A stretch of 64,000 bases of DNA, from IMG/VR virus record IMGVR_UViG_3300028833_000058. One strand, given 5' to 3'. Below, one piece after another: positions 49,929 through 64,000 of the stretch; position 1 is the first letter of the stretch, and each line of letters opens with the position of its first letter. The notes beneath the pieces were generated by a model. That model did no database searches, was not told where the DNA came from, and saw only the letters and a program-made list of their open reading frames with translations. The position numbers and the translations under genes were made by a program. The stretch comes from a virus (Duplodnaviria; Caudoviricetes).

Positions 49929-50283
49929 TCATCTTCTCTCTATGTTCATCAATCATTTTACAAACTTTTTCTAACTTCATAAGATATTTTTCGTCCAAAT
50001 CTATCTGGCCATTGTTATACATCTCTAAATCTTTCTTCCACGTATCAATCATACCGTCATCAATGAGGTCAATTAACTCAATCATATTCTTTTGTATTTC
50101 TTCTGACCCATTGAAAAGATAAAAGTGACAATGATTTAGAGCGGCAACCCACTTGGCATCACAATATGACCAATCTTTTTCTAAAGCTAAACCAAAAAAG
50201 TTAAGAAAGTGTCTAAACCACTTACCTAATTTAGACCAATCGTAGTTGTAATTGTATTCCTCGTTAAAATTATCGTGTTTCAT
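49921..50283 (-). CDS. Hypothetical protein
   Basis: SD AAGGAG. Confidence 0.55.
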   Translation of the reverse strand: MKHDNFNEEYNYNYDWSKLGKWFRHFLNFFGLALEKDWSYCDAKWVAALNHCHFYLFNGSEEIQKNMIELIDLIDDGMIDTWKKDLEMYNNGQIDLDEKYLMKLEKVCKMIDEHREKMNV

Positions 50284-50534
50284 TTATTAACTCCTTTTGT
50301 TTTAGAATAATCCTTTGCTTACGATAATCATCACGTACTTTTTCTAAAACTTTTTTCTTTTCCTCATTGTCTTGATTATAAAAATCATTCAACTGTTGAG
50401 CTTCATGCTCATCTTCGATATATTGTTGTATCTTCAAGTGATTTATCATAGTTACTCCTGAATGAAACGTGACTGATTAAACTGAAATAAATATACATTT
50501 CAGTTACAGATAAGTAAAGACAATTTTTAGTTAT

Positions 50535-50785
50535 TTACCAGAAATAATATTTGTTTAAAGTTTCTAAATCTTCTTTTGTAACTTTGTAATTGGAATCATT
50601 ACAAATCACAGCGTCTACACCACAATATGGACATACAGCCGTTTTTCTTTTGTCTGTCCATTCTTTAACATTTTCTGGTGGGAAAGTACGTTTACAGTAA
50701 AAACAACCACACAAGTCAGTTTTTTCTATCTTTTCTTTATTGTAGATAGCACATTTGTGTAATTTTACTACTCTTTTTGATTCAT
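50535..50785 (-). pseudogene. Small Cys-rich protein frame (CGCFYC...CPYCGVDAVI) with out-of-frame start
   Basis: Conserved-looking frame lacks an in-frame start; the nearby ATG frame reads MNQKE** across an A5 run. Confidence 0.45.
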
Positions 50786-51415
50786 GGTAGTTTTTTTTGT
50801 TTTATTAAAGAAAAAGTTGGTCTTTTTAACCCAGGCAGGAGAAGAACCAACAGAAACTCCATAGAAGGTAACATTAACCTAGTTACCACGGTTTATCATT
50901 CCAGGGCTCTTTCTTGCAGAGCAGCAGATAGTTTCTTTTATGTTCTAGAACTAACAAATACAGTTACACAACGTCTAACTAACGGATGGGTTGTGATAAA
51001 TAGTTATCCCATCAACTATTGGAACTAACAATGAATAAAAAATGATAATTAAGAGATTTTTTATTCGTCTTGTATATTACACAATAATTTTAAAAAGTAA
51101 AGACATTATTTCTTTTTCTTTTTATTATCCACAACAACAGGAACTTCTTTCTTAGGTTCTCTGACGTTGCACTTTGGGGCCTTACCAACATCTTCTGATA
51201 AGTTCTTGATGATAGGACTTAATTTGAGATGTTTAGCCCATTTCTTTTTGAACATCATCTCTTCGAATGATTTCTTCTTCTGTTCAATGTCCATTAACAA
51301 TCTCCTTCTTTGTTGTTATAAGTGTATATAATAGAACAATAAAAAGTTGGACATTTGTAAAGTTTTTGTAGAATTTTATAAAAAAAAGCGTGTCCATAAG
51401 AACACGCTCTATTGT

Positions 51416-51949
51416 TTATCTGGTAATCTGATAGAAGTAATACCTCTTATTTCCGATTCTAACAATTCTAATCATCATAAACGGAAATTCACCTAAACCA
51501 AATAAAGCTTCATATCTTTTGTACTTTGGTTTAGTAAGAGTAAGACCTAAATCTTCTTTTACGTCATTTTCAACTTCTTGAAGTAAATATTCGCATACTT
51601 CATTTGAGCAAAATTCAACATCTTTTTTACAACACAACGGTTGTTCGTGTACCATACCTCTTTCTAAATAATCTTTAAAGTATTCTTTAACGTCAGTTTT
51701 CAATTCTTCATATTCTAAAGCTTGATTTTGATAAGTAATATGTCTTCCTTTATCATCAAAAATGCCATAAGCTCTAATATTGAATAAAGAATCTGTTAAA
51801 CTTTCATCATCTTGTTTCAACATAGACAAGTAATGTTTAACAATCTCAAAACATTTATCAGCAAAATCACGTTTACAATCATTAGTGATATCATCAATAG
51901 AGTTATCACCGAGTTCACGAAAATTGTGGACAGTTTCTTTTTTTAACAT
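51416..51949 (-). CDS. Hypothetical protein
   Basis: SD AAGGA; terminator hairpin at about 51381-51409. Confidence 0.55.
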   Translation of the reverse strand: MLKKETVHNFRELGDNSIDDITNDCKRDFADKCFEIVKHYLSMLKQDDESLTDSLFNIRAYGIFDDKGRHITYQNQALEYEELKTDVKEYFKDYLERGMVHEQPLCCKKDVEFCSNEVCEYLLQEVENDVKEDLGLTLTKPKYKRYEALFGLGEFPFMMIRIVRIGNKRYYFYQITR

Positions 51950-52103
51950 ATCTTTTTCCTTTATGGTTAATGGGTTCAGAATGGTTACTGAACATGTCTT
52001 TTACAATTCATCTAACAAGTTAGATGACAGAAATAAATTTACATCTATTTCTGTCATATTATAGAACTTATTTTATTTTATCCACAAAGAAAATTTATTA
52101 GTT

Positions 52104-52775
52104 TTAAAATTTCATCTTTCGACCTTTTTTCCAGCCTTGAGCTACAAATTGGTCTAAAAATTCTTTTTTTATACTTTTATTTTGTTTTAATTCGTCATTG
52201 TATACCCAACAATGACCATAGTTTGAATTTAAATTCCCTTTTTGACGAATTGAATTTTTTATAGCTATTTTCTTCTTTGTTTCTTCTGTTAAATGTTTTC
52301 CTTTCATTGGGTTTTCATGTGTTCTATAGTATTCTTTAAGTCCGTTTGATATTCTTTCTATGTATTCGGAATATTCTTTTTGTGTCATTGATGTCCAAAA
52401 TTTCTTATTTCCAATGATACATGGGTGATTTTTTCCATATTCAATCCAGTTGTTTTTCGCTTTTATAGATTGGATTTCATGATTGTTACAACAATAATCC
52501 CATCCACCTTCTCCACCAACTTTTATGTTATATGTATCAACTCTTTTTATAAATTCTTCATCGACAAGTTCTTTTTCTTTTTGATTCATTTCTTCTTCAC
52601 TCTTACATTCAAATAAAATTTCTTTTTTAAAATTGTTTAATCCATACTTTTTGAATGCTTCAAAAAGTATTTTTCCAGAACCCATGTATTCATCATTTAT
52701 CTTATCAGTTTTATGTTTTCCAATGTAAATTTTATTGTTTAAAACGTTTGTTATTTTATATATTAAAAAGTACAT
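52104..52775 (-). mobile_element. GIY-YIG (Seg-like) homing endonuclease with NUMOD3, at the end of tRNA operon 1
   Basis: IYKITN...KIYIGKH...YMGSG; MKGKHLTEETKKKI; start revised to ATG 52775 (SD AAGGAG). Confidence 0.88.
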
Positions 52776-52823
52776 AACTGTCTCCTTATGTACTAGAACT
52801 TTTTTGTACACAAATTTTTGAAA

Positions 52824-52898
52824 TGGCACAGGATGGTTAGAATCGAACTACCATCTTTCGGGTTGGAGCCGAATATTTTACCATTAAACTAATCCTGC
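52824..52898 (-). tRNA. tRNA-Trp(CCA)
   Basis: Cloverleaf, TTCGG-CTCCAAC-CCGAA, CCA end. Confidence 0.9.
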
Positions 52899-52903
52899 AT
52901 CAA

Positions 52904-52981
52904 TGGGGTGGTCGGTGAGGATTTGAACCCACATTCACTAGAACCACAATCTAGGGCTTTAACCAATTAAGCTACGACCAC
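52904..52981 (-). tRNA. tRNA-His(GTG)
   Basis: CTAGA-TTGTGGT-TCTAG, CCA end. Confidence 0.92.
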
Positions 52982-53026
52982 AAGAATATACCACATTACT
53001 GATATATGCTTCTAGTCGCAAAAAAA

Positions 53027-53100
53027 TGGCAGAGGTTGACTGACTCGAACAATCATCTTTGGTTTTGGAGACCAGTGTTCTACCTTTGAACTAAACCTCC
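53027..53100 (-). tRNA. tRNA-Trp(CCA), second divergent copy
   Basis: TGGT-CTCCAAA-ACCA, CCA end. Confidence 0.88.
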
Positions 53101-53102
53101 GT

Positions 53103-53177
53103 TGGAGCGACTCATGAGAATTGAACTCATATCTCTAGTTTGGAAGACTAGCATAATAGCCATTATACGAGAATCGC
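53103..53177 (-). tRNA. tRNA-Gly(TCC)
   Basis: CTAGT-CTTCCAA-ACTAG. Confidence 0.92.
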
Positions 53178-53179
53178 AT

Positions 53180-53253
53180 TGGAGAACCGCACAGGAGTCT
53201 AACCTGCCTAATTCGGGTTGCAGCCGAACACATAAACGCTCTGTCAACGGTCC
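53180..53253 (-). tRNA. tRNA-Cys(GCA)
   Basis: TTCGG-CTGCAAC-CCGAA, U discriminator. Confidence 0.88.
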
Positions 53254-53255
53254 AT

Positions 53256-53333
53256 TGGTGGCAATAACTTGAATCGAACAAGTAACTTCATCCTTATGAG
53301 AGATGCGTTCTAACCAAATTGAACTATATTGCC
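53256..53333 (-). tRNA. tRNA-Met(CAT), probably elongator
   Basis: CATCT-CTCATAA-GGATG; operon leader contains an internal ATG. Confidence 0.85.
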
Positions 53334-53336
53334 ATT

Positions 53337-53412
53337 TGGTGAAGATGGTGAGAATCGAACTCACACTCCCCTGATTAAAAGTCAGGTGCTTTACCGATTA
53401 AGCTACATCTTC
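53337..53412 (-). tRNA. tRNA-Lys(TTT)
   Basis: CCTGA-CTTTTAA-TCAGG. Confidence 0.93.
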
Positions 53413-53414
53413 AA

Positions 53415-53490
53415 TGGTGGATACCCCAAGAATCGAACTCGGTCCTTCTGTTCTTCAGACAGACGTACGCACCAGCTATACCAGATATCC
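53415..53490 (-). tRNA. tRNA-Phe(GAA)
   Basis: TCTGT-CTGAAGA-ACAGA. Confidence 0.9.
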
Positions 53491-53492
53491 AT

Positions 53493-53571
53493 TGGTGGAG
53501 AATGTGAGTTTTGAACTCACCTGAATTTCTCGGTGCAAACGAGATGACCACCCCAAGCAGTCCCATTCCCC
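53493..53571 (-). tRNA. tRNA-Ala(TGC)
   Basis: TCTCG-TTTGCAC-CGAGA; G3:U70 pair. Confidence 0.9.
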
Positions 53572-53601
53572 ACGAAATTTATAATATATACCTAAAAATA
53601 A

Positions 53602-53637
53602 GAAAAACCCCCGAAACTTTTTATTTTTTCGGAGGTT
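53602..53637 (-). terminator. Attenuator terminator upstream of tRNA operon 1
   Basis: AACCTCCGAAA-loop-TTTCGGGGGTT followed by TTTCTT. Confidence 0.8.
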
Positions 53638-53676
53638 GTACAATTTTTTACTTAGAGCCAAGAAATAAAGTTTTAG

Positions 53677-53754
53677 TTAATAGTCGACACCTCCGTCAGT
53701 TTTACCTGCGAATCCAAACATGTGCCAACATTTCTTAACTAATCTATTCATCAT
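53677..53754 (-). CDS. Leader peptide 1, MMNRLVKKCWHMFGFAGKTDGGVDY
   Basis: 25 aa ORF with SD AAGGAG; its codons match the downstream Ala/Phe/Lys/Met/Cys/Gly/Trp/His tRNAs. Confidence 0.85.
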   Translation of the reverse strand: MMNRLVKKCWHMFGFAGKTDGGVDY

Positions 53755-53787
53755 ATTAAATAGAACTCCTTTTTCTTTACTTCTTCT

Positions 53788-53816
53788 CTTATATCAAACT
53801 TTTTTCATAAAGTCAA
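53788..53816 (-). promoter_or_regulatory. Sigma70-like promoter upstream of leader 1
   Basis: TTGACT-17-TATAAG; a GTTCTA motif also lies at 53766-53761. Confidence 0.5.
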
Positions 53817-53836
53817 GTATTTTTTTTTAAGATTTT

Positions 53837-53964
53837 TGTCAAAGAGAATTTTTCAAACAGATTTTTGCAGCAGGACTTGAACCTGCATAGCTTTTCAGCT
53901 GTTGTTTTTTGAGAACAATGTGTATACCATTTCACGATGCAACTGTTTGACCGCTTCTTTGACA
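53837..53964 (-). ncRNA. Y-RNA-like (YrlA-type) RNA with tRNA-Leu(CAA)-like domain
   Basis: Terminal stem GTCAAAG-AAGCGG-TCAAACAG / CTGTTTGA-AAAATTCT-CTTTGAC enclosing D arm, CT-CAA-AA loop, long variable arm and GGTTCAAGTCC T arm; downstream of TROVE. Confidence 0.75.
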
Positions 53965-54067
53965 TAATAACTAAATGAAAAACTTTACGTATTTTTCTTG
54001 AGTACTTCTCAACAACGGTTAGTCAACATTGGAGAGGGGGTATGAAGCCCTAGAAGTAATTAGTTTG

Positions 54068-54188
54068 TGGTAAAGAGTATAAATAGAACAGGTTTATTGC
54101 AGTAGGACTTGAACCTACAATCCTTTGATTAAAAATCAAATGTTTTATCCACTTAAACGATGCAACTGTTCCAACCGCTTCTTTACCA
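54068..54188 (-). ncRNA. Y-RNA-like (YrlA-type) RNA with tRNA-Lys(TTT)-like domain
   Basis: Same AAGCGG/CTCT stem motif; TTTGA-TTTTTAA-TCAAA arm; GTAGG-TTCAAGT-CCTAC. Confidence 0.75.
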
Positions 54189-54199
54189 AAATTTATGCT

Positions 54200-54273
54200 C
54201 GAAGAGAATATTTAGAAATTGTGTATTTAGTCAACAACCCTTAGACGATGTAACAATTTCAACCGCTTCTTCG
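54200..54273 (-). ncRNA. Short Y-RNA-like RNA (no tRNA domain)
   Basis: CGAAG-AAGCGG-TTGAAATTG-TTACATCG...CAATTTC...TTCTCTTCG. Confidence 0.65.
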
Positions 54274-54282
54274 CTCTAATAA

Positions 54283-54597
54283 TTATTCACACAAATCAGA
54301 GTTTGTACATGAGTTGTATGGCTTACGACTATATGAAACTTCTTCATAAGTTTTTGGCTCATAAACTGTAGTATAAGTAACATCTTTGTAAATTACTTCT
54401 ACTGGTTTAGAAATAGTGTAACTTGTTGAACAAGTGTTACATTCATTGTTGTAAGAACGATATGTGTTGTAAGAAGGTTTAGTGTAGTTTACAACAGGTT
54501 TTTGTTCTTCAACTTTTGGAGTAACAATTACTTCTTCTGTTTCAGCACAAGTACAAGCACTTAATAAAATAGAGCATAACATTAAAACTTTTTTCAT
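54283..54597 (-). CDS. Small putative lipoprotein
   Basis: MKK + hydrophobic stretch + LSAC lipobox. Confidence 0.7.
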   Translation of the reverse strand: MKKVLMLCSILLSACTCAETEEVIVTPKVEEQKPVVNYTKPSYNTYRSYNNECNTCSTSYTISKPVEVIYKDVTYTTVYEPKTYEEVSYSRKPYNSCTNSDLCE

Positions 54598-54629
54598 GTC
54601 AATTACCTTTCGAACGTTGTTGATAAGTT

Positions 54630-54721
54630 AGTGAGGATTAGAGTATCATAAAGATTTGTTATTTCTAAAGCAGATTACATGTCTGGACTCGATGTAAATC
54701 TTTAACCGCTTAATCCTCACT
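54630..54721 (-). ncRNA. Y-RNA-like RNA immediately after the TROVE stop
   Basis: AGTGAGGATT-AAGCGG-TTAAAGAT-TTACATCG...ATCTTTA...ACTCT-AATCCTCACT. Confidence 0.65.
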
Positions 54722-54724
54722 TTC

Positions 54725-56353
54725 TTAGTCATTTACCGATGTCTTTATTTTAATAGAACTCTTCTTTTCTACTTTTTCATCTGTAATATTATCCATTCTA
54801 TCCCAAATGTCAATTAAAGTTTTAGCATAAATGGATTCTTTACCAGTCCAACCAGTTAGAATACTTGTTCTGTATTCATTTTCTGGCATTACATTGTTGT
54901 CATAGCCAGCTGTTTGAATAGAAAAGATATTAACTTTTGCATTAACCTTTCTTCTATATTCTTGAACAAGCTTTAAGACATCAATGAATTTTGAATTGTT
55001 GTATAAATAATCACGATAATGATGTTCATTTAATCCATACAATCCACCATGACCAGCTTGCATATCAGAGTAGATGAAAATGTTATCGTAATGTATCTTT
55101 TTCTTTATAGCTTCGTCAAAGAATAACCATATACCATTTTCAGTACTAGCACCGATGTTGTGTGAATGTCTACATTGAATTCTATCTAATTGAGACAGTA
55201 CACCATCTCTTTTGTTGACTGATTCGATTTCTAACCTATCTCCAAAGATTCCAACATACCCTTCATCAGAATTAATAGCTGTCATAACTGAAGATAAGTT
55301 ATCAATTTCAGCAACTTTAGTAGAACCATATTCAGTAGTTAATGCACCCCATGCTGAACCAGAGTTATCCGACAAGCAGATGGTCTTACCCTTTAACTTA
55401 GGGAAATTGTCCATTGCTCTATCTATACATCTGTTCAAGCTTTCTACAATAGCAGATTCACCCTTAACACGTGGATTAGAAGTTTGAATAGCCTTTAATG
55501 CAGACCAATATCTAAATGGAAATTGCTTACCCTTTTCGACACCGTTTTCAAGCATTTCAAGAACTTGCTTTCTGACATCTTCATCTTCAATCTCAGTAAA
55601 AATACCACGTAAGTTTCTTAAAAGAGCCATATGTGGGACATAAGTTGCTTGTAAAATTTCTGTCCAAGTTTTACCAGCACTTCTTAACTTTTCCCAAGTA
55701 GATTCTTCTTCTGTAACTTCAATAGTACCAGACTTCATAAGTTCATCAATGTCTTCAGAGTGAGCATGACAAATACGAACTAAGTCGATGATTTTAGCAC
55801 TTGTCTTGTACTTAGCCAATTGATATTTTTTAGTTACAGATAATTTGTTAGCCCATGCTCTTTTTAAGATAGATGGTAATTTACTTTTGGAGCCATTGAA
55901 GAACATCCACAATTCGAACTGATTCCAAATGTCAGTAGGAATGTTGATAACTTCTTCAATGCAACTACGCATGAACACCTTGTTTTCTTCATTAAAAGCT
56001 TTTCTACCATCATACATTACAGCTCTAACCATAATCAAAGCTGGGTTTAAACGCATATTGTATTCATATCTTAACTTTTTAGCAAGATTTAATACACCTT
56101 CGAAATCATAAGCTAAAGCATTGTCACAAGCTTCAACAAAAGTTGCTGTTGTACCAGATAACTCTTTGTTGTTAGCACCATCGTTTTTGTAATATGACTT
56201 TTCACCAAAAATAGATGACGCAGCAACCATTTCTAGCTCTAGCAATGGGTTAGTTTTATAGGAAATACCATTCATGAAGTTTACAACTTGCTCATCTTTG
56301 TGCTTGTTGTAATCTGCTTCAGATTTCTTTGCATAACCTGAGAATTTAGACAT
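54725..56353 (-). CDS. Ro60/Rsr TROVE-domain RNA-binding protein with C-terminal vWA domain
   Basis: DLVRICH, TWE, PHMALLRNLR, KQFPFRYWSA, vWA DNSGS...SDMQ, GW. Confidence 0.9.
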   Translation of the reverse strand: MSKFSGYAKKSEADYNKHKDEQVVNFMNGISYKTNPLLELEMVAASSIFGEKSYYKNDGANNKELSGTTATFVEACDNALAYDFEGVLNLAKKLRYEYNMRLNPALIMVRAVMYDGRKAFNEENKVFMRSCIEEVINIPTDIWNQFELWMFFNGSKSKLPSILKRAWANKLSVTKKYQLAKYKTSAKIIDLVRICHAHSEDIDELMKSGTIEVTEEESTWEKLRSAGKTWTEILQATYVPHMALLRNLRGIFTEIEDEDVRKQVLEMLENGVEKGKQFPFRYWSALKAIQTSNPRVKGESAIVESLNRCIDRAMDNFPKLKGKTICLSDNSGSAWGALTTEYGSTKVAEIDNLSSVMTAINSDEGYVGIFGDRLEIESVNKRDGVLSQLDRIQCRHSHNIGASTENGIWLFFDEAIKKKIHYDNIFIYSDMQAGHGGLYGLNEHHYRDYLYNNSKFIDVLKLVQEYRRKVNAKVNIFSIQTAGYDNNVMPENEYRTSILTGWTGKESIYAKTLIDIWDRMDNITDEKVEKKSSIKIKTSVND

Positions 56354-56387
56354 TTTAGTTCCTTCCTTTCTTTCTCGATTTGTTGTG

Positions 56388-56421
56388 ATTATATTTTCAA
56401 TTTTTGTTAAAGTAAAGTCAA
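56388..56421 (-). promoter_or_regulatory. Sigma70-like promoter of the TROVE/Y-RNA unit
   Basis: TTGACTTTACT...: TTTACT-17-TATAAT. Confidence 0.6.
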
Positions 56422-56448
56422 TTGTTGTAATTTATACACTTTAGCTGA

Positions 56449-56634
56449 TTAGTTAAGCACTAACTTGTTGAATTTAATGTTTAAATAATCAGCTATAGCT
56501 TTTTTCCAATTGAACTTCTTTACTTTCTTTTTCTTATTCGGCACTACTTTATGTTGAAATAGTGCATTGTGGTAAAGATTGAATAACAAACATCTCTCTT
56601 CACCTGTTTTAGTTCGTTTTGTTTTCTTTTTCAT
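56449..56634 (-). CDS. ArfA-like alternative ribosome rescue factor candidate
   Basis: Basic 61 aa; LYHNALFQHKVVPNKKK resembles ArfA LLHDPLFRQRVEKNKKG; long hairpin over the 3' end. Confidence 0.55.
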   Translation of the reverse strand: MKKKTKRTKTGEERCLLFNLYHNALFQHKVVPNKKKKVKKFNWKKAIADYLNIKFNKLVLN

Positions 56635-56826
56635 TTTATTTCTCCAAATTATTTTTAATATATTTTTTAAAATACTGACGAACTTTTTTATTGTAATCTT
56701 TAATCATAGCTTGAACAGCATTTTTGTCTCCACTACGTTTATAATCACTTTTATATTCTTCGTCAGGTTTTACATTTATGTTTTTATATCCTTTCATTTT
56801 ATTTCTCCGATAAAAAAGGGAGATTG

Positions 56827-57210
56827 TTATCTCCCGTTGTTTTTGTTACACGCTACGAAACTGCTGTACATTTCCTTGTTAATATTTATGTCCATAGTTT
56901 CAGCTCGTTCCCTCGCTTTTCTTTCATAATATTCAAATCTATCTTTTGTTAATGGATAAAAATACAAGGCTCTCGATTCCATTATTACTAACTTCTTCAA
57001 TTCCTTCTCTGATTTTTCAGCATATTCTTTACATAACATTCTAAAAAGACCGTCTTCTGTTTCTTCATCTTTTATAACGTGTCCATAATGTTTAGATAAC
57101 TTATAAGCTTGTAAATCAATGTTAGCTTGTGTTTCTATCGCTCTTTGTATGTCACCAGACAATTTGCTAAAATTAGACCCCTTTTCATCAGAAAAATGTC
57201 TATAGTCCAT
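56827..57210 (-). CDS. Hypothetical protein
   Basis: ORF track; GTTCTA motif upstream. Confidence 0.55.
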   Translation of the reverse strand: MDYRHFSDEKGSNFSKLSGDIQRAIETQANIDLQAYKLSKHYGHVIKDEETEDGLFRMLCKEYAEKSEKELKKLVIMESRALYFYPLTKDRFEYYERKARERAETMDININKEMYSSFVACNKNNGR

Positions 57211-57381
57211 TGTAATAATTCCCTATATATATGTGAAGTGTAATGTATAGAACTAAAAAATCGTTTGTCCATTTTAGAATAATGACCTAGGAAATTCTAA
57301 AACTCTATGTTAATTCATACGACAGGTTTTAACATTACTAAGATGTCATGGAACTACTGGGACAATTGTACAAAAAAGTGT

Positions 57382-57410
57382 TTGACATTTTGTCCAATCT
57401 AGTGTATAAA
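57382..57410 (+). promoter_or_regulatory. Near-consensus sigma70 promoter
   Basis: TTGACA-17-TATAAA, 4 nt before the ATG. Confidence 0.65.
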
Positions 57411-57414
57411 CTTT

Positions 57415-57723
57415 ATGTGTCAAACAACTGAACTGGACAAAGCAATGGATGTTTTACTTCGTATACTCATAATCTTTATGTTGTTATATATGGTCTATAT
57501 AACCATATCATCTATTTGGGAAGCTGGTGGTCGTACCATACTCGGAAGTATAATGTTTGTGGCCATGATGTGGGCCTTTTGTGCACTTTTAAATACAACT
57601 ATCGTACAAGCTCTTATAGCTTGTTGTTTTCTAGTTGTAATTGTCATGTTGGTACTTCAAGCTATAGCTTGTTTTCTTTCATCAATGATTAGTTATATCA
57701 ATAAGTTATTTAATCATGAATGA
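57415..57723 (+). CDS. Small membrane protein (3 TM)
   Basis: Hydrophobic; own promoter; opposite orientation to the island. Confidence 0.6.
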   Translation: MCQTTELDKAMDVLLRILIIFMLLYMVYITISSIWEAGGRTILGSIMFVAMMWAFCALLNTTIVQALIACCFLVVIVMLVLQAIACFLSSMISYINKLFNHE

Positions 57724-58084
57724 AAGAATCAATAAAATCTTCTAAACTAATTTTTTCACCAGTCTCTTTGTTTGTTGCAATCTGTTTGTCAAGACGTATC
57801 ACAAACGAATCGTTAGAAAGAACATATGCACTAAGTTGTCTAAATCCTCTATCTTTAAAGAATTGTAAGATATCTAAGTAGATTTTTGTGTCTTTTGATG
57901 GTTTAATTTTGTCCATATCGACTTTACCATTTCTCCAATCGTTATACATATATTTCGGTAACCATCCAACATATTTTATGCACCGTGTACAACGAATCCC
58001 AAATATTTCAGGATGCGTCTTAGAAATAATATGTTCAAAGTGCGTAGACCCACATATAGGACATATGAATTTATCATTCTTCAT
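57710..58084 (-). CDS. Zn-ribbon protein (start revised to 58084)
   Basis: CPICG...CTRC; SD GAGG. Confidence 0.6.
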   Translation of the reverse strand: MKNDKFICPICGSTHFEHIISKTHPEIFGIRCTRCIKYVGWLPKYMYNDWRNGKVDMDKIKPSKDTKIYLDILQFFKDRGFRQLSAYVLSNDSFVIRLDKQIATNKETGEKISLEDFIDSFIHD

Positions 58085-58105
58085 GAAACTTCCTCTCAGA
58101 TTTAG

Positions 58106-58179
58106 TGGTTTCGGGGGGTCGATTCGGACGACCATTAACGCAGTCAAAGTGCGCTATCCTACCATTAGACGACCCCGAA
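58106..58179 (-). tRNA. tRNA-Gln(TTG)
   Basis: GCGCA-CTTTGAC-TGCGT, CCA end; variant T loop TCCGAAT. Confidence 0.88.
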
Positions 58180-58186
58180 ATAAGAC

Positions 58187-58314
58187 GATTGGAGGAGGAG
58201 TCGAACCTCACACAATTAAGAATTACCGTTCTTAAAATTTTCCTCTACTTCCCGTCTTCTTAATCAAACTTTCTTTCGGTAAAAATACTTATTTGACATA
58301 GTAGAGCTCCAACC
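58187..58314 (-). ncRNA. Unclassified tRNA-like RNA, copy A
   Basis: GGTTGGAG/CTCCAATC stem, GAGG-TTCGACT-CCTC arm; covaries with copy B. Confidence 0.65.
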
Positions 58315-58349
58315 ATAAAAAAACAATAACTTTTTAATTGAATAGTTCA

Positions 58350-58640
58350 TCACTACCTTGTTCAGTTTGTGGTCTGGAACATATCTTCATCTTCAACATT
58401 ACTTGGCTAGATGGAATCCACTTGTTCTCTACACATTTATTACGAAAGTGCCAGAATCGAACTGGGAACTAAGATTACAACACCCATAGAAGTTATCTCA
58501 GTTTCTATCTATGCTCAATAGGGTCCAACACTATCTCACCTTCATAAATTTAGCTCGGTATTGTCATCAGCATTATCTGTTAAGATTTCACTGAATTCGG
58601 ATTCATTCAAATATACATTTCTGTATAAGTGTTCAGTTTT
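58350..58640 (-). mobile_element. Group I intron-like core joined to a tRNA-Gln 5' half (58644-58679)
   Basis: P3 AATCC/GGATT, P4 AATTCAGTGAA...AATACCGAGC, P7 AGAGAACA/ATATGTTCC, P8 CATCT/AGATG. Confidence 0.6.
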
Positions 58641-58686
58641 ACCCAAAATCTCATGTCCTACCATTAGACGACCCCGAAATAATCAC

Positions 58687-58822
58687 GGTTGGAGGTGGAG
58701 TCGAACCACACACCACTAACATCTGCAGATATTAGAATTTCCCTCTACTTGCCGTTATCTTAATCAAACTTTCACTTCTGCAGAAGTACTCATTTGACAT
58801 ATGAAACATTAGAGCTCCAACC
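58687..58822 (-). ncRNA. Unclassified tRNA-like RNA, copy B
   Basis: GGTTGGAG/CTCCAACC, GTGG-TTCGACT-CCAC. Confidence 0.65.
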
Positions 58823-58967
58823 ATAAAAAACAATAACTTTTTGATTGAATAGTTCATCACTACCAAACCTAAACGGAGAAGTTATTGCAGAAACTCCCTA
58901 AACGTAGGATAGGATTGATAACATTACTAAGATGCCATAGCAATAGTCCTATCACTTCAAACTAAAA

Positions 58968-59060
58968 TGGCACCCCGTAAACTGATTCGAACAGCATTCC
59001 CGTACTAATTGACTGGAGCTATAGACATTCAACTAGCGGTCACCATGACTACAACGAGGT
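58968..59060 (-). ncRNA. Atypical tRNA-like RNA with CCA end and 16-nt central loop
   Basis: ACCTCGT/ACGGGGT-G-CCA; TTCGAAT T loop. Confidence 0.55.
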
Positions 59061-59069
59061 ATTAAATGT

Positions 59070-59189
59070 TCTTCTTGACAAGGCTTGAACTTGTACCTAA
59101 ACCTTAGAGGGAATTGTGCTACCGCCGTTAGGGTTTAGTAAAAAGAGCTATAGTATTTACTAAATCTATCCGTTTACACTACAAGAAGA
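59070..59189 (-). ncRNA. Atypical tRNA-like RNA with a hairpin inserted in the D loop
   Basis: CTTCTTG/CAAGAAG acceptor, ACAAG-TTCAAGC-CTTGT T arm, TTTAGTAAA/TTTACTAAA insert. Confidence 0.55.
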
Positions 59190-59194
59190 TAATA

Positions 59195-59329
59195 CTATAA
59201 ATTATTAATAAACCAATTGTGAATGTTCTGCCAAAATCCAGACTTTATAGATATCAATGTACCATATATTGCTATCAACGAAACAATTATTGAAAGTATA
59301 GATTCTACAATTTCTAATTTTTCTTTCAT
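59195..59329 (-). CDS. 44-aa single-TM peptide (MKEKLEIVESILSIIVSLIAIYG...)
   Basis: Below the ORF-track cutoff; GGAG upstream. Confidence 0.45.
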   Translation of the reverse strand: MKEKLEIVESILSIIVSLIAIYGTLISIKSGFWQNIHNWFINNL

Positions 59330-59474
59330 TTAACATATTCTCCAATTTTGTATCTTTCTAGGCTACTACTGCGCAACCCTACGACTGCTGCACCATCGTT
59401 TTACGTTCTTCGTTTACTCAGCTTGTATCGTCAATGAAAGTTCCTGAGCTGACGTTTTCCAACCTATTACAACT

Positions 59475-59555
59475 TGGCGGGGCCACATGATTTTCACACG
59501 TTATCTTGGACCTACATCCTAAGCAATCTGTTCTAGAACCAGATTTAACGCCCCA
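59475..59555 (-). ncRNA. Atypical tRNA-like RNA ending in CCA
   Basis: TGGGGC/GCCCCG-CCA with three arms but non-canonical loops. Confidence 0.45.
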
Positions 59556-59782
59556 TAAAAAAATCGGCAATCGGTTTTTACCCTTTATCCACTCGCTGTT
59601 CGAACTCTTTAGCGTTGGAGGGTCAGGTTACTGTTTTCTACAGCACATAGTTATTTAGGCAATTACCTCTAAATACTAACAACACGCCATCAACCTGTCT
59701 GATTATATAAGCATCAATTTAATACTTATCCGATGTACATTCATATTAAATTGTACTAGTCTATATAATCACGAATTAGAAT

Positions 59783-59868
59783 TGGTGCAAGGTGATAGAG
59801 TCGCACTACCCGAGTCCGAAGACAAGTGATTTACAGTCACTCCCGCTACTCCTACGGTATAACCTTGC
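59783..59868 (-). tRNA. tRNA-Tyr(GTA)
   Basis: AGTGA-CTGTAAA-TCACT, long variable arm. Confidence 0.88.
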
Positions 59869-60025
59869 ATAAAAGTAATCCGATAATATCTAAATCTACA
59901 CTTACTTGGTACTAGCATGTAAAACATACTGTCCAAAGCCCCCACTTTCAATTTCTAAAGAAATAGCCGCTCGGATTAACACGGTGGGATGGATTCTACG
60001 AAAAAAGTACGTAAAATCAATGGTT

Positions 60026-60099
60026 TGGTCGAGAACGTCCGATTCGAACGGCAATCCCTCGCCCCAAACGAGGAGTGTTACCCTTACACCACGTTCTCG
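60026..60099 (-). tRNA. tRNA-Pro(TGG)
   Basis: CCTCG-TTTGGGG-CGAGG. Confidence 0.9.
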
Positions 60100-60109
60100 A
60101 TGAATAAAA

Positions 60110-60186
60110 TGGTGGAACAGGAGTGACTTGAACACCCAACCTATCCGTTATGAGCGGAGAGCTCTGACCAATTGAGCTACTGTTCC
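60110..60186 (-). tRNA. tRNA(CAT), probably Ile2 (lysidine)
   Basis: CTCATAA loop; the operon leader contains an ATA codon. Confidence 0.75.
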
Positions 60187-60187
60187 A

Positions 60188-60706
60188 TTAAGCTTTTTTA
60201 TAAGATTTATTCTTCAATATAAAGATTATTCTGCTATGTGCAACACCAAATTTTCTAGCTAATCCACGAGTTCCGAATTCTTTATGTTTTGGAATATAAT
60301 GTTCTCTTATCCATTTAGCTTGTTCATTTGTAAGTTTTGCACCATGGTTATCTTCACCACCATGATATGTTATTAAATTATGCTTTACTGCGTGAATAGT
60401 ATTTTCTTGATTAGTACACCACTCTAAGTTATCCCAACGATTGTTTAATTTGTTTCCATCAATGTGATTTACTTGTGGTTTGTTTTCTGGATTTGGTACA
60501 AAAGCTTCAGCAACCAACCTGTGAATTTTTACACATTTACATCCACCTTTTCTACCATTTGGATATAAAGCGTATACATAATAGCCTGTCTTTCCAATTT
60601 GTTGCTTTACGTTTTTGTTAGACCTACCCTTTAGATTGCCTAGATTACTTATAAAATAACCTTGTATATCAATTTCTTTCCAAATTTCTTCTTCGATGTT
60701 TTCCAT
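60188..60706 (-). mobile_element. NUMOD4-HNH homing endonuclease inserted between tRNAs
   Basis: EIWKEI..YFISNLG; HRLVAEAF...VNHIDGNKLNN...NLEW. Confidence 0.92.
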
Positions 60707-60794
60707 TTACAAATTCCTATATTGTTATGACTAATTTATAGAACTATATAAATGGTGCCTATTTTTCATCGAACACAAAATTTTTATAAAAATT

Positions 60795-60866
60795 TGATTC
60801 CAACGAGATTCGAACTCGTATTACCACCGTGAAAGGGTGATGACCTAACCGTTAGTCGATGGAATC
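60795..60866 (-). tRNA. tRNA-Glu(TTC), CCA not encoded
   Basis: TCACC-CTTTCAC-GGTGG. Confidence 0.88.
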
Positions 60867-60945
60867 ATAATAATCAACGCTTTTTGATTGCATGGTAAAA
60901 ACCACCAAACCTTATTATGGAGAAGCATTGATGAAACTCCTTGAT

Positions 60946-61022
60946 TGGCGGGAGTGACCAGTCTTGAACTGGCGACCTCCACAGTGACAGTGTGGCGTTC
61001 TGACCAACTGAACTACACCCCC
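60946..61022 (-). tRNA. tRNA-Asp(GTC)
   Basis: CCACA-CTGTCAC-TGTGG. Confidence 0.92.
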
Positions 61023-61024
61023 AT

Positions 61025-61112
61025 TGGTGGATTTGATGAGACTTGAACTCATATGGTCACAATGACCGAGGGATTTTAAGTCCCTTGCGTATACCAGTTT
61101 CGCCACAAATCC
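61025..61112 (-). tRNA. tRNA-Leu(TAA)
   Basis: AGGGA-CTTAAAA-TCCCT, long variable arm. Confidence 0.92.
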
Positions 61113-61116
61113 AAAT

Positions 61117-61191
61117 TGGCTGGGATGGAGAATTTCGAAATCTCGACCTACGGTTTAACAGACCGCCGCTCTGCCTCTGAGCTACACCCCA
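61117..61191 (-). tRNA. tRNA-Asn(GTT)
   Basis: GCGGT-CTGTTAA-ACCGT. Confidence 0.9.
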
Positions 61192-61197
61192 ATATAA

Positions 61198-61272
61198 TGG
61201 TGCCACATGAGAATTTTGCAATCCCGACCTACCGCTTACAAGGCGGTTGCTCTACTTCTGAGCTAATGTGGC
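61198..61272 (-). tRNA. tRNA-Thr(TGT)
   Basis: ACCGC-CTTGTAA-GCGGT. Confidence 0.9.
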
Positions 61273-61276
61273 ATTT

Positions 61277-61410
61277 TGGCGGGAGTGACTATATCTGTGT
61301 CATTATAAAGTCATTTAATTAACATTTTGTATCACTGAGTGTCCTACACTTTTATATATCTAGAATCAGATAGGCAAAACTCTAACTACTTTGTATTTAA
61401 CAGAACTCCC
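61277..61410 (-). ncRNA. 134-nt RNA with Asp-like acceptor stem and CCA end
   Basis: GGGAGT/ACTCCC-G-CCA; last 13 nt identical to tRNA-Asp. Confidence 0.4.
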
Positions 61411-61417
61411 ATAATAA

Positions 61418-61494
61418 TGGCAGACCGTACAGGACTCAAACCTGTGACACCAAGCTTAGAAGGCTTGTGCTCTATTCTACTGAGCTAACGGTCT
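61418..61494 (-). tRNA. tRNA-Arg(TCT)
   Basis: CAAGC-CTTCTAA-GCTTG. Confidence 0.92.
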
Positions 61495-61820
61495 ATAAGA
61501 GTTATATAGGATAGGTAAACCAACGTATTTACCTCTTGCGTTATGGAGCAATGATTTGTTCCAATGTAATCTGGGCTCATCTATTCTTACGAGATAGACC
61601 ATCCTATATGTTCTATGGTTTGGGATGTGGAAGCGAATCCATCTTCCTTTTTGTACCCTAGGCCTGACCGATATACACTTTACAATGTATAACATCCCAA
61701 GACTTGTAGTTTTCATAACGGTCCATTTAGAGATTCTACTGAGCACTGTCCGTTATGGGAATCTGCTTTGTTAAGGAGCTCTAAATCTCTTAACCGCAGT
61801 TACTACAACCCTCTCAGCAG

Positions 61821-62186
61821 CTAATCTTTAATCTTCACGAGTTCATAAACATTAATTGGATATTTCCTTTGTTCACAATTTGCAATTTTATAAACTCTAT
61901 GTTTATCTATACCCAAAATATATTTTACGATTCTACCGATATCTTTACCAGCTTCAGCTTCTGGGTTATCAATTTTTCTTTTTACATGGTACTGATACAC
62001 ATAATCTAATGGTGTATAAGACCAATCTCTAAATTTACCTCCAACAATATCAGAAGTGGTAAATTGCTTTTTATAAGCCAAAGCTCCTTGAATCATACCA
62101 TTTATAAAAGTTGTCAATTCAGCTTGTTGCATGTAAGATAGTGATTCAAAAGCACTGGACTTTTGTATGTTAGAATTGATAATCAT
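61821..62186 (-). CDS. Hypothetical protein inside tRNA operon 2
   Basis: SD AAGGA before ATG 62186. Confidence 0.6.
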   Translation of the reverse strand: MIINSNIQKSSAFESLSYMQQAELTTFINGMIQGALAYKKQFTTSDIVGGKFRDWSYTPLDYVYQYHVKRKIDNPEAEAGKDIGRIVKYILGIDKHRVYKIANCEQRKYPINVYELVKIKD

Positions 62187-62280
62187 AGCTCTTTTCCTTT
62201 CATGTATGATTATAATGTTAAACAAGTTTATTAAATGAGAAACAAGTTATTTAACGACCCCTGTTTCGGTTTAAGTCGAT

Positions 62281-62373
62281 TGGCGGAGAGAGTAGGATTC
62301 GAACCCACGGTGGTATATTTCACCCACGGCTGATTTCAAGTCAGCTGCAATAGACCAACTCTGCCATCTCTCC
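62281..62373 (-). tRNA. tRNA-Ser(TGA)
   Basis: GCTGA-CTTGAAA-TCAGC, long variable arm. Confidence 0.93.
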
Positions 62374-62381
62374 ATGATATT

Positions 62382-62462
62382 TACAGATGGAGAGATTTGA
62401 ACTCTCACGCATTTCTGCACTGGTTCCTAAGACCAGAGTGTCTACCGTTCCACCACATCTGT
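62382..62462 (-). tRNA. tRNA-Leu(TAG), CCA not encoded
   Basis: CTGGT-CTTAGGA-ACCAG. Confidence 0.9.
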
Positions 62463-62469
62463 ATAAATT

Positions 62470-62546
62470 TGGTACAGCTGGATAGACTCGGACTATCGAC
62501 CCCTGCCTTATCAGAGCAGTGCTCTAACCAACTGAGCTACAGCTGT
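62470..62546 (-). tRNA. tRNA-Ile(GAT)
   Basis: CTGCT-CTGATAA-GGCAG. Confidence 0.9.
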
Positions 62547-62551
62547 ACAAA

Positions 62552-62628
62552 TGGTAGAGGTGAAGAGATTTGAACTCCTGACCCTCTCGGTGTAAACGAG
62601 ACGCTCTAACCAGCTGAGCTACACCTCT
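62552..62628 (-). tRNA. tRNA-Val(TAC)
   Basis: TCTCG-TTTACAC-CGAGA. Confidence 0.93.
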
Positions 62629-62665
62629 ACAAAAAGTATTTCCTATTCACAATGTCATTATAACT

Positions 62666-62700
62666 AAAATAAAAACTCGTCTTTTTATCTTTGACGAGTT
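62666..62700 (-). terminator. Attenuator terminator upstream of tRNA operon 2
   Basis: AACTCGTC-loop-GACGAGTT followed by TTTATTTT. Confidence 0.8.
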
Positions 62701-62750
62701 CCTATTTCTTTTAACTTTTTAAATGTTTTGATTAAGCAATAGCAAACTCG

Positions 62751-62813
62751 TCAGCCTTGTTCTCTAGGTTGATTATATAAATCTGAGTATGTTACTATCG
62801 TTTTAATCATCAT
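62751..62813 (-). CDS. Leader peptide 2, MMIKTIVTYSDLYNQPREQG
   Basis: 20 aa ORF; its codons match the 12 amino acids of the downstream tRNAs; antiterminator begins at the stop codon. Confidence 0.85.
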   Translation of the reverse strand: MMIKTIVTYSDLYNQPREQG

Positions 62814-62842
62814 ATTAATTAGAACCTCTTCATTGAAATTTT

Positions 62843-63127
62843 TTATATTGTACAGAATTTTTTCTTATTTGTAAAGTCTTTTTTTTCAATTTTCTTTACT
62901 TTTTTGTTAATATAGTTGATAACATCTTGAACTGTAATGAATTTTTTTGATACCTTGTCTGGTATTTCAATATCAAATTCACACTCTAAAGCCATTATAA
63001 TTTCGATTATATCCAAACTATCGGCTCCGAAATCGTCAACCAAGCTTTTAGATTTCTTGATTGCGGATTCTTTTATGTCCAAGTGTTCAGAAATGATACC
63101 TATTACTAATTTTTCAACACTCTTCAT
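62843..63127 (-). CDS. acpP: Acyl carrier protein
   Basis: DFGADSLDIIEIIMALECEFDIEIPD with the phosphopantetheine Ser. Confidence 0.9.
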   Translation of the reverse strand: MKSVEKLVIGIISEHLDIKESAIKKSKSLVDDFGADSLDIIEIIMALECEFDIEIPDKVSKKFITVQDVINYINKKVKKIEKKDFTNKKKFCTI

Positions 63128-63149
63128 TCTCTCACCTTGTGAAAATTAC

Positions 63150-63545
63150 CGATTCTTTAAGCACGTTGGGTATGCCGTCTGAATAACTGACTACTCCTTA
63201 CGTTATCATTCTCAGTTGTACGATAACAGCCCAATAGTCATATAGTTGACGTTTTGCACATAGTGGCATCTCGGTATTCCATTTGTCTTTACAGACATTC
63301 GTATATAAATTCGGCTGAAGGACTCCTGACTACCTCCAAGCAGTATATTAAGCGCATTATTCAGTCACATCCACATAAGTTAGCTACTCTTATGCTTTTA
63401 GGATGAGGAGATTGATTACTCCTAAACGGATACAGATATCAGCATTTCAACCTACGATTTGTCCGTTTCTTACGTCACTAAAGGTTGGCCAACCCTTGCT
63501 ATTTCAACCTTATGCTTCTTAATACCTGGCAACTATATAGTAAAC
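63150..63545 (-). ncRNA. Large structured ncRNA candidate (ROOL/GOLLD-like class)
   Basis: About 400 nt with no ORF; long-range helices ATATAGTTG/CAACTATAT and CTGAATAA/TTATTCAG plus many hairpins. Confidence 0.55.
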
Positions 63546-63613
63546 TTTTCAGTATTATTATATATCTCTTTATTAGCCATCAACTAATTATTTAGAGAAA
63601 GCCAAATTTATAT

Positions 63614-63691
63614 TGGTTGCAGGGAATGGATTCGAACCACTGACCTCTAGGTTATGAGCCTAGCAAGCTGACCTGACTGCTCTACCCTGCT
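63614..63691 (-). tRNA. tRNA-Met(CAT), initiator-like
   Basis: Unpaired 1:72, TAGAGCAG D arm, CTAGG-CTCATAA-CCTAG, AACCA end. Confidence 0.85.
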
Positions 63692-64000
63692 ATAAAACAA
63701 ACTTATGGGTTATTGATGTTCTATATTTGAACTATAAATAGGTGATAAAGCTATTTATTTAGGCACCTCCCCTAAAATTTTCAATATAATTGGCAGAGCG
63801 TTTAATGCGTTTTCAGGAGTTCTGCCAACAAATTTATATGTCATTTCTTTTAGGTCTACACCATTTTACCCCCTAGGCTGCTTAAGACGAATGACAAGAC
63901 TAGCAGTGTTATATCTATCCGTTTTAACAAAATAAGAATTTGGTGCCCTCTAGATATAACAGTATAGTTTGGGCGGACTATGGTTCTAATTGGAGCAGAT

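Follow-up and report, generated by a model that had tools for sequence, protein, structure and literature searches.

A candidate leader-peptide attenuator ahead of a phage tRNA operon lists codons read by the operon's own tRNAs

A 20-codon leader open reading frame (ORF), a set of competing RNA helices, and an intrinsic terminator precede the second tRNA operon of the large sheep-gut phage analyzed here, and we consider it probable that this operon is gated by a ribosome-mediated (leader-peptide) transcription attenuator of the trp type. On this model, the phage probably makes its 14-gene tRNA block only when ribosomes read the leader codons slowly; since the leader holds about one codon per operon tRNA, expression would rise upon a shortage of what the operon encodes and would be turned down by the operon's own products. 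Why phages carry tRNAs is debated, with codon-usage matching, host tRNA loss, and escape from anticodon nucleases under discussion, and to our knowledge little has been described of how phage tRNA genes are regulated. Our literature searches brought up no account of tRNA genes governed by a leader peptide. An attenuator whose leader spells out the operon's own tRNAs would demonstrate a coupling of tRNA supply to the demand in decoding. It would be a sensor, open to direct test, that responds when any of many single tRNAs runs short, and it would carry the classic trp-type mechanism over from genes for enzymes to the machinery of decoding itself.

The window analyzed is a 64-kb stretch of a 79-kb IMG/VR virus record that is ~33% complete, with a G+C content of 31%; near-identical DNA is contained in sheep-gut metagenomes. 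tRNA genes were called with ARAGORN and a permissive Rfam scan of positions 50000 to 64000. From 64000 to 52800, the minus strand, which carries all window features noted here, holds 26 tRNA genes or tRNA-like elements together with genes for a phage ACP, a Ro60/TROVE homologue, and HNH and GIY-YIG endonucleases. Rfam matches to plastid UTR families, sX4, and sR32 were discarded as sub-threshold tRNA cross-matches. A megablast search of GenBank phages with positions 60000 to 64000 returned HNH and tRNA fragments only, without a close relative, an exact-pattern scan of IMG/VR for the shared leader start gave zero matches, and a search with the ACP neighbor led to a single distant locus that was not informative. 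A search with the Ro60 protein gave 44 loci, and pattern and genome searches then yielded the three relatives used below, L002, G001, and G002. Table 1 lists the features of the two attenuators and of tRNA operon 2.

Table 1. Positions of attenuator and tRNA operon features in the 64-kb window
Feature	Position	Strand	Basis or remark
Promoter-like TTTACA-17-TACAAT	62847..62875	-	Inside the 3' end of the ACP gene
Shine-Dalgarno AAGAGG	62825..62830	-	11 nt before ATG
Leader 2 ORF MMIKTIVTYSDLYNQPREQG, 20 codons + TGA stop	62751..62813	-	Homologues in L002, G001, G002
Leader 2 sensing run, codons 3-18 (ATT to GAA)	62760..62807	-	15/16 codons read by 13/14 operon tRNAs
Region 1, protector (anti-antiterminator) 5' strand, within ORF	62785..62809	-	MFE fold
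Region 2	62729..62753	-	62753-62738, antiterminator 5' strand, from the stop codon; 62749-62729, protector 3' strand
Intrinsic terminator	62666..62708	-	5' arm 62708-62693 (core AACUCGUC), 11-nt loop, 3' arm GACGAGUU 62681-62674, then UUUUUAUUUU
Spacer AGTTATAATGACATTGTGAATAGGAAATA...	62629..62665	-	Conserved in relatives; perfect -10 TATAAT at 62662-62657
tRNA-Val(UAC), Ile(GAU), Leu(UAG), Ser(UGA)	62281..62628	-	ARAGORN/Rfam
tRNA-Arg(UCU), Thr(UGU), Asn(GUU), Leu(UAA), Asp(GUC), Glu(UUC)	60794..61494	-	ARAGORN/Rfam
CAT-anticodon elongator tRNA, probably tRNA-Ile2 (reads AUA)	60110..60186	-	
tRNA-Pro(UGG)	60026..60099	-	ARAGORN, Rfam
Non-canonical class-II tRNA-Tyr(GUA)	59783..59868	-	Cloverleaf is the MFE fold; kept in G001, G002
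tRNA-Gln(UUG), last tRNA sampled by leader 2	58106..58179	-	ARAGORN, Rfam
Attenuator 1: promoter, leader MMNRLVKKCWHMFGFAGKTDGGVDY, terminator	53590..53816	-	Ahead of tRNA Ala, Phe, Lys, Met, Cys, Gly, Trp, His, Trp

The 5' leader of operon 2 contains a short ORF with a start codon and a putative ribosome-binding site. This ORF runs from the ATG at 62813 to the TGA at 62753 to 62751 and reads ATG ATG ATT AAA ACG ATA GTA ACA TAC TCA GAT TTA TAT AAT CAA CCT AGA GAA CAA GGC TGA, so that it opens with two ATG codons; most of its sensing codons are present only once. The Shine-Dalgarno core occurs in 31 of 49 long ORFs of the window at a spacing of 5 to 10 nt, which is exceeded by the 11 nt of leader 2, and leader 2 of the relatives has no Shine-Dalgarno sequence. 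The putative promoter has the same motif type as those ahead of leader 1 (TTGACT-17-TATAAG at 53816) and of the Ro60 gene; promoter-like hexamers in this AT-rich DNA are not commoner than in shuffles. A further motif, GTTCTA(T/A) (62819 to 62825 and 53759 to 53765 in the window), precedes all start codons of both leader families by 6 to 13 nt in each of the four genomes (leaders of L002, L059, and L060 besides those of the window). In some leaders it pairs with ATAGA(A) in codons 3 to 6, which places the start codons in a hairpin loop, and this predicted pairing may be a second control layer at translation initiation.

Leader 2 codons 3 to 18 match 13 of the 14 operon-2 anticodons when Tyr, AUA read by the CAT tRNA, and family-box wobble are counted, and this score is unique among 50,520 stop-free 16-codon windows in six frames. 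Windows of fixed length were chosen because an ORF-level ranking without length normalization favors long ORFs (40-codon ORFs match 11 of 12 anticodons). By the strictest count, without Tyr, without CAT, and with strict wobble, leader 2 scores 10 of 12, which is reached by 45 of the 50,520 windows (0.09%); reading of CCT by the anticodon TGG requires a U:U wobble. tRNA-Leu(UAG) is not sampled by leader 2, and the tRNAs for its AAA and GGC codons are encoded elsewhere, not in operon 2. The preliminary description had matched 13 consecutive leader codons (62798 to 62760) and the earlier ATT (62807) to tRNAs downstream. These codons are present as described; ARAGORN finds the anticodons TAC, GAT, TGA, TCT, GTT, TAA, GTC, TTC, CAT, TGG, and TTG downstream, and Tyr GTA is confirmed by compensatory changes (see below). 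tRNA-Thr(UGU) (61201 to 61272), which has an unusual T arm and was missed by ARAGORN, was found by Rfam only, at 55.9 bits. The regulatory codons match the supply encoded by the operon, which is made up of tRNA genes, a single HNH endonuclease gene, and small ORFs rather than genes for amino acid biosynthesis or transport.

The tRNA-Tyr(GUA) was called neither by ARAGORN nor by Rfam, even at E = 10. Its class-II cloverleaf has a CUGUAAA anticodon loop and an ACCA end, and when G001 and G002 are included, eight of the nine variable columns make up four compensatory pairs, with 100% of cells paired; judged by these substitutions, the element is a real, non-canonical tRNA-Tyr. Other tRNA-like sequences were seen nearby. 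In the stretch at 58966 to 59059 (ACCTCGT...ACGGGGTGCCA), the acceptor stem is paired and the end is GCCA, without a clear anticodon arm. Positions 58180 to 58880 hold two ~190-nt repeats, each composed of a tRNA-like element with a large insert (acceptor GGTTGGAG/CTCCAACC, T arm GGTTCGACTCC) and, after it, the 5' half of tRNA-Gln. Of the tRNA-Gln copies, the first ends abruptly past the anticodon stem, and the ~300 nt after this broken copy include a weak group I intron match (58361 to 58654, 18 bits, E = 0.11).

Folding of the leader region gave the three helices expected of an attenuator, two of which the preliminary description had proposed as a protector helix and as a 9-bp antiterminator at the TGA stop codon. 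The protector (anti-antiterminator, 1:2) helix overlaps the coding region and, together with the terminator, makes up the MFE fold (-35.9 kcal/mol, z = -4.3; matched by 0 of 200 shuffles); against L002, it shows one C-G to U-A double change, read by eye, and folding of L002 and G001 gave a protector helix as well. The antiterminator, UGACGAGUU/AACUCGUCA, is present as a 9-bp helix of -9.3 kcal/mol (62753 to 62745 with 62700 to 62692) and extends to 15 bp (62753 to 62738 with 62706 to 62692). Its 3' strand, 62706 to 62692, is also part of the terminator, and its 5' strand would be masked by a ribosome at the stop codon. The duplex of region 2 with the terminator 5' arm reaches -13.8 kcal/mol. 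The intrinsic terminator, lying between the leader and the first regulated gene, has an 8-bp GC core that extends to 16 bp and ends 37 nt before tRNA-Val. A generic terminator scan (loops of ≤8 nt) missed it because its loop is 11 nt, and a scan for hairpin-plus-U sites was used in its place; on this strand, the latter found only three strong sites between 64000 and 51500, namely, the two attenuators and one at 56817.

We further simulated ribosome stalling with a 30-nt ribosome mask and with the nascent RNA folded up to the terminator loop. The antiterminator formed with the A site at codons 1 to 16 but not at codons 17 to 21, so that AGA and GAA, which are matched codons, fall where the simulated ribosome already blocks the antiterminator. 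When no ribosome is present, the folds with the protector and with the antiterminator have almost the same energy (-23.5 and -23.3 kcal/mol, respectively); the default state is thus not fixed by energy, and the model rests on kinetics rather than on equilibrium.

In the proposed mechanism, transcription would start at the putative promoter, and a ribosome would translate the leader as RNA polymerase advances, the two being presumably coupled. Slow decoding at any codon from ATT to CCT/AGA, where a tRNA is scarce, uncharged, or destroyed, would leave the ribosome sitting on region 1. The stop-codon segment (UGACGAGUUU.GCUAU) would then be free to pair with the terminator 5' arm, the terminator would be blocked, and the polymerase would read into the Val, Ile, Leu, and Ser genes and on to Pro, Tyr, and Gln. 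If all codons are read fast, the ribosome would reach the TGA and cover this segment, the terminator would form, and transcription would stop at 62666; if the leader is left untranslated, regions 1 and 2 could pair, and the terminator would again be free to form. Both the direction and the size of the response are what we infer from this scheme.

Leader 2 is kept in the three relatives (MIKMIVTYSSLDNQPEN, MMKNFEITYSDSYNQPESLG, and MMIMIETYLNSYNQPRIVRLRV), among which its ends vary freely. The terminator arms are ACUCGUC/GACGAGU in the window and L002, AAGCCUGUCA/UGACAGGCUU in G001, and AAACCCGCUAA/UUAGCGGGUUU in G002, and each genome has its own complementary antiterminator segment at or beside the leader 2 stop codon. 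The four regions were analyzed one by one because the alignment is too gappy for column-wise pair counts; the observed duplex energy was reached in 3 of 2,000 shuffles for the window and in 1, 3, and 12 of 2,000 for the relatives. Moreover, tRNA-Val and the GTA codon of the sensing run are both present in the window and L002 and both absent from G001 and G002. The earlier reading of this region as an attenuator is thereby borne out, in its three-helix anatomy by folding and stall simulation and in three relatives by antiterminators that match their own terminators.

The other tRNA operon is preceded by a candidate attenuator of the same kind. Leader 1 (KKCWHMFGFAGK) covers exactly the eight amino acids of its own operon, which are those outside the set of leader 2: 12 consecutive codons match eight of eight operon identities (Ala, Phe, Lys, Met, Cys, Gly, Trp, and His), a result unique among 61,333 windows. 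As these eight amino acids make up 31% of phage residues, 12 in a row would by itself have a probability of ~10^-6. Of the 20 amino acids, 12 fall to the sensing run of leader 2 and 8 to that of leader 1, with the exception of one Lys in the leader 2 run, and cross-matches between each leader and the other operon are low. Across the four genomes, the 12 core codons of leader 1 differ only by four synonymous changes while flanking codons change amino acid, which points to selection on the translated frame. A candidate covariation of Gly codon and anticodon in leader 1 was rejected, since GGA/UCC in the window and G001 and GGC/GCC in L002 are joined by GGC/UCC in G002.

The same design recurs with unrelated sequences. 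L022, a more distant relative with a different tRNA arrangement, has three unrelated leaders: NISPSILRPSIR precedes Ser/Arg/Pro/Ile/Leu, EDDLLED precedes Glu/Asp/Leu, and a leader of 35 codons stands ahead of 15 tRNAs. For the operon that it precedes, each of the three is the only six-frame window to reach its score, and an antiterminator lies at the stop codon in every case. Together with the two leaders of the window, these make five unrelated leader sequences with the same design; the five families show no peptide similarity, their common trait being the match to their own tRNAs, and the same families occur in several further loci. When leader 1 and the three L022 leaders are added, the codon-tRNA match is far beyond chance. 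In L015, L020 to L027, and L039, we noted a TAnnTTTG motif (TATATTTG) upstream of NILPSILRPSIRRS leaders, which have no Shine-Dalgarno sequence. TAnnTTTG without a Shine-Dalgarno sequence is the Bacteroidota style of promoter and initiation, whereas the window phage has sigma-70-like promoters and Shine-Dalgarno sequences; the attenuator design may thus span phages whose hosts use different expression signals.

No strong intrinsic terminator was found between 62675 and 56817 by the hairpin-plus-U scan, so nothing obvious stops a transcript between Val and Gln, and these ~4.5 to 4.7 kb would form one transcription unit. Internal promoters may also act within the operon, and bypass of the attenuator is likewise conceivable. 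The TATAAT just after the terminator could be a bypass promoter, and L002, G001, and G002 have a full promoter-like TTTACA-17-TATAWA just upstream of the spacer element, between attenuator and tRNAs; transcription of the tRNAs may thus in addition proceed without the attenuator. Contigs assembled from two RNA libraries (sheep and bovine gut) bridge the leader, the terminator, and tRNA genes. As assembled contigs, they hold no information on levels, strand, or true ends. Neither the lack of RNA cover at the ACP gene nor the variation in depth within the operon is usable as evidence. The contigs of the two libraries end, at 62823 and 62827, while the DNA run continues, which is a weak hint at a 5' end just downstream of the predicted promoter.

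From the ATA codon in leader 2, the preliminary description had also suggested that the CAT tRNA at 60110 to 60186 is tRNA-Ile2. This identity still appears rather likely to us from its context; similarity tests do not decide it. In favor, L002, G001, and G002 have tRNA-Ile(UAU) in the same Glu-X-Pro slot, ATA accounts for 40% of the phage's Ile codons, and the tRNA-Ile of phage T4 carries a CAT anticodon. The tRNA joins the CAU anticodon to an elongator-type body (G1-C72, C11:G24), while the CAT tRNA at 63614 to 63691 bears the initiator marks of an A1xA72 mismatch and A11:U24, and the one at 53256 to 53333 stands behind a leader with an internal ATG and would be the Met tRNA of operon 1. By similarity, the sequence does not align with the relatives' tRNA-Ile(UAU), is 66% identical to both T4 tRNA-Ile(CAT) and the window's Ile(GAU) and 64% identical to the operon 1 Met tRNA, and finds a mixture of Met, Thr, and Val tRNAs as best matches among the relatives. 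Similar tRNAs are labeled "Met" in phage records, 52 IMG/VR contigs share the anticodon arm, and no TilS gene was found in the 79-kb fragment, which is ~33% complete. Directly upstream of this tRNA, at 60188 to 60706 inside the tRNA array, lies the HNH homing-endonuclease gene with NUMOD4, and this position suggests that the CAT tRNA replaced the relatives' Ile(UAU) by homing. A GIY-YIG homing-endonuclease gene, SegE-like and with NUMOD3, was noted at the end of the tRNA array (52104 to 52829).

The device described above might report a different signal, namely, host condition (amino acid starvation, uncharged tRNA, or loss of host tRNAs through cleavage by anticodon nucleases or degradation after infection), and would then be an induction switch rather than a homeostatic feedback. 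A stalled ribosome cannot tell absent from uncharged tRNA, an ambiguity established for the trp, his, and leu attenuators; the two leaders between them cover all 20 amino acids, like a general meter of translation stress; and the Ro60 gene and tRNA-like Y RNA candidates between the operons suggest that tRNA damage matters. However, each leader is limited to the tRNAs of its own operon, which is a better fit to control by the operon's own products, and we hold it unlikely that host state is what the leaders report, although the two readings are not exclusive. Downstream of the Ro60/TROVE homologue (542 amino acids; 54725 to 56353), positions 53860 to 54290 hold three repeats of the motif gaagcggt...acagttgcatcg; two of them were called by ARAGORN as odd tRNA-Lys(UUU) and tRNA-Leu(CAA), and the repeats are probably Y RNA-like partners of Ro60.

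Alternatively, the hairpin might be only the terminator of the upstream ACP gene, the ORF a chance frame, and the tRNA operon served by a promoter of its own just downstream. The TATAAT at 62662 to 62657 and the promoter-like motifs past the terminator in the relatives would suit this arrangement; promoter motifs are, in addition, not enriched in this AT-rich DNA, and the strict codon count is not unique. Yet such an arrangement would leave unexplained the complementary 12/8 amino acid split of the two leaders, the three unrelated own-operon leaders of L022, the synonymous-only change in the leader 1 core, and antiterminators that change along with three different terminator sequences, which makes this explanation very improbable. 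We find it hardly credible that the ORF encodes a functional small protein, or that the terminated leader RNA acts in trans, with the codon match being secondary. Activity in trans is possible for leader peptides and for terminated attenuator RNAs, as reported for peTrpL and rnTrpL of Sinorhizobium (PMC6614838, PMC7968998). Against such a function, the five leader families share only the match to their own tRNAs and no peptide similarity, and close relatives differ freely in the ends of leader 2.

As a predicted attenuator read by ribosomes, the element would work like the trpL/hisL/ilvL family but is a member of no described subfamily. Like the enterobacterial leader-peptide attenuators, it combines a short leader ORF, in which the codons are placed so that a stalled ribosome would free an antiterminator, with 1:2, 2:3, and 3:4 helices that exclude one another and with an intrinsic terminator immediately ahead of the genes it would regulate; its stop codon is placed so that a finishing ribosome would mask region 2. 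Multivalent leaders are known from enterobacteria, such as thrL (Thr/Ile) and ilvL of ilvGMEDA (Ile/Val/Leu), besides trpL, hisL, pheL, and leuL. The phage element differs in residing in a phage, in having tRNA genes rather than biosynthetic enzymes as its predicted targets, and in a leader where 13 different tRNAs are represented by roughly one codon each, in place of a run for one to three amino acids; moreover, the two phage leaders jointly cover all 20 amino acids and have no sequence similarity to any known leader. T-box riboswitches are comparable in that a leader upstream of translation-related genes makes a terminator/antiterminator choice that depends on tRNA status. T-boxes, however, recognize uncharged tRNA by direct contact with a specifier codon and the T-box motif, act without being translated, and regulate aminoacyl-tRNA synthetase and amino acid genes; the anatomy here is that of a translated ORF, and the permissive Rfam scan of 50000 to 64000 gave no T-box match. 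The tRNA cluster of phage T4 shares with this one homing endonuclease genes among the tRNAs (segB in T4) and a CAT-anticodon tRNA-Ile reading AUA, but no leader ORF is annotated in the stretch of the T4 record that was inspected. The leader-peptide mechanism is a classic one; the tRNA-gene target, the one-codon-per-tRNA leader, and the phage setting are new.

We see an even chance that phages of this lineage run all of their tRNA genes as demand-sensing regulons, every tRNA block following a leader that lists the block's own codons and the leaders jointly serving as a complete 20-amino-acid meter of decoding capacity. If so, such a phage would replace exactly those tRNAs that are limiting, be it through codon-usage mismatch, host shut-off, or host anticodon-nuclease defenses, and would shut the block once supplied; it would then be the first time that tRNA genes are found in nature to be controlled through the translation of their own codons. 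The logic is also of use in annotation, since a leader predicts tRNA identities and here pointed to the missed tRNA-Tyr and to the AUA-reading CAT tRNA. Leaders of this kind could serve as compact biosensors of tRNA availability.

Two further noncoding elements were observed. Upstream of the ACP gene, the ORF-free stretch at 63352 to 63586 reaches a summed contig depth of 350 to 425 in three metatranscriptome runs, compared with ≤60 in most other bins, and its loose ends lead into other contexts. It has no Rfam match and an unremarkable fold (z-score of -1.5), and it may be a conserved, abundant RNA. The other is a conserved element of ~120 nt (aaaaggctaataggaattttctt...aagctgtgata...gacttgttgacctaaccttgc), without an Rfam match for the L002 copy, that occurs at L061:1-120 and L002:5150-5270. 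The former belongs to the window phage's own genome, past the window end, and lies upstream of a small membrane-protein ORF; in L002, the element sits between the leader 2 terminator and the first tRNA.
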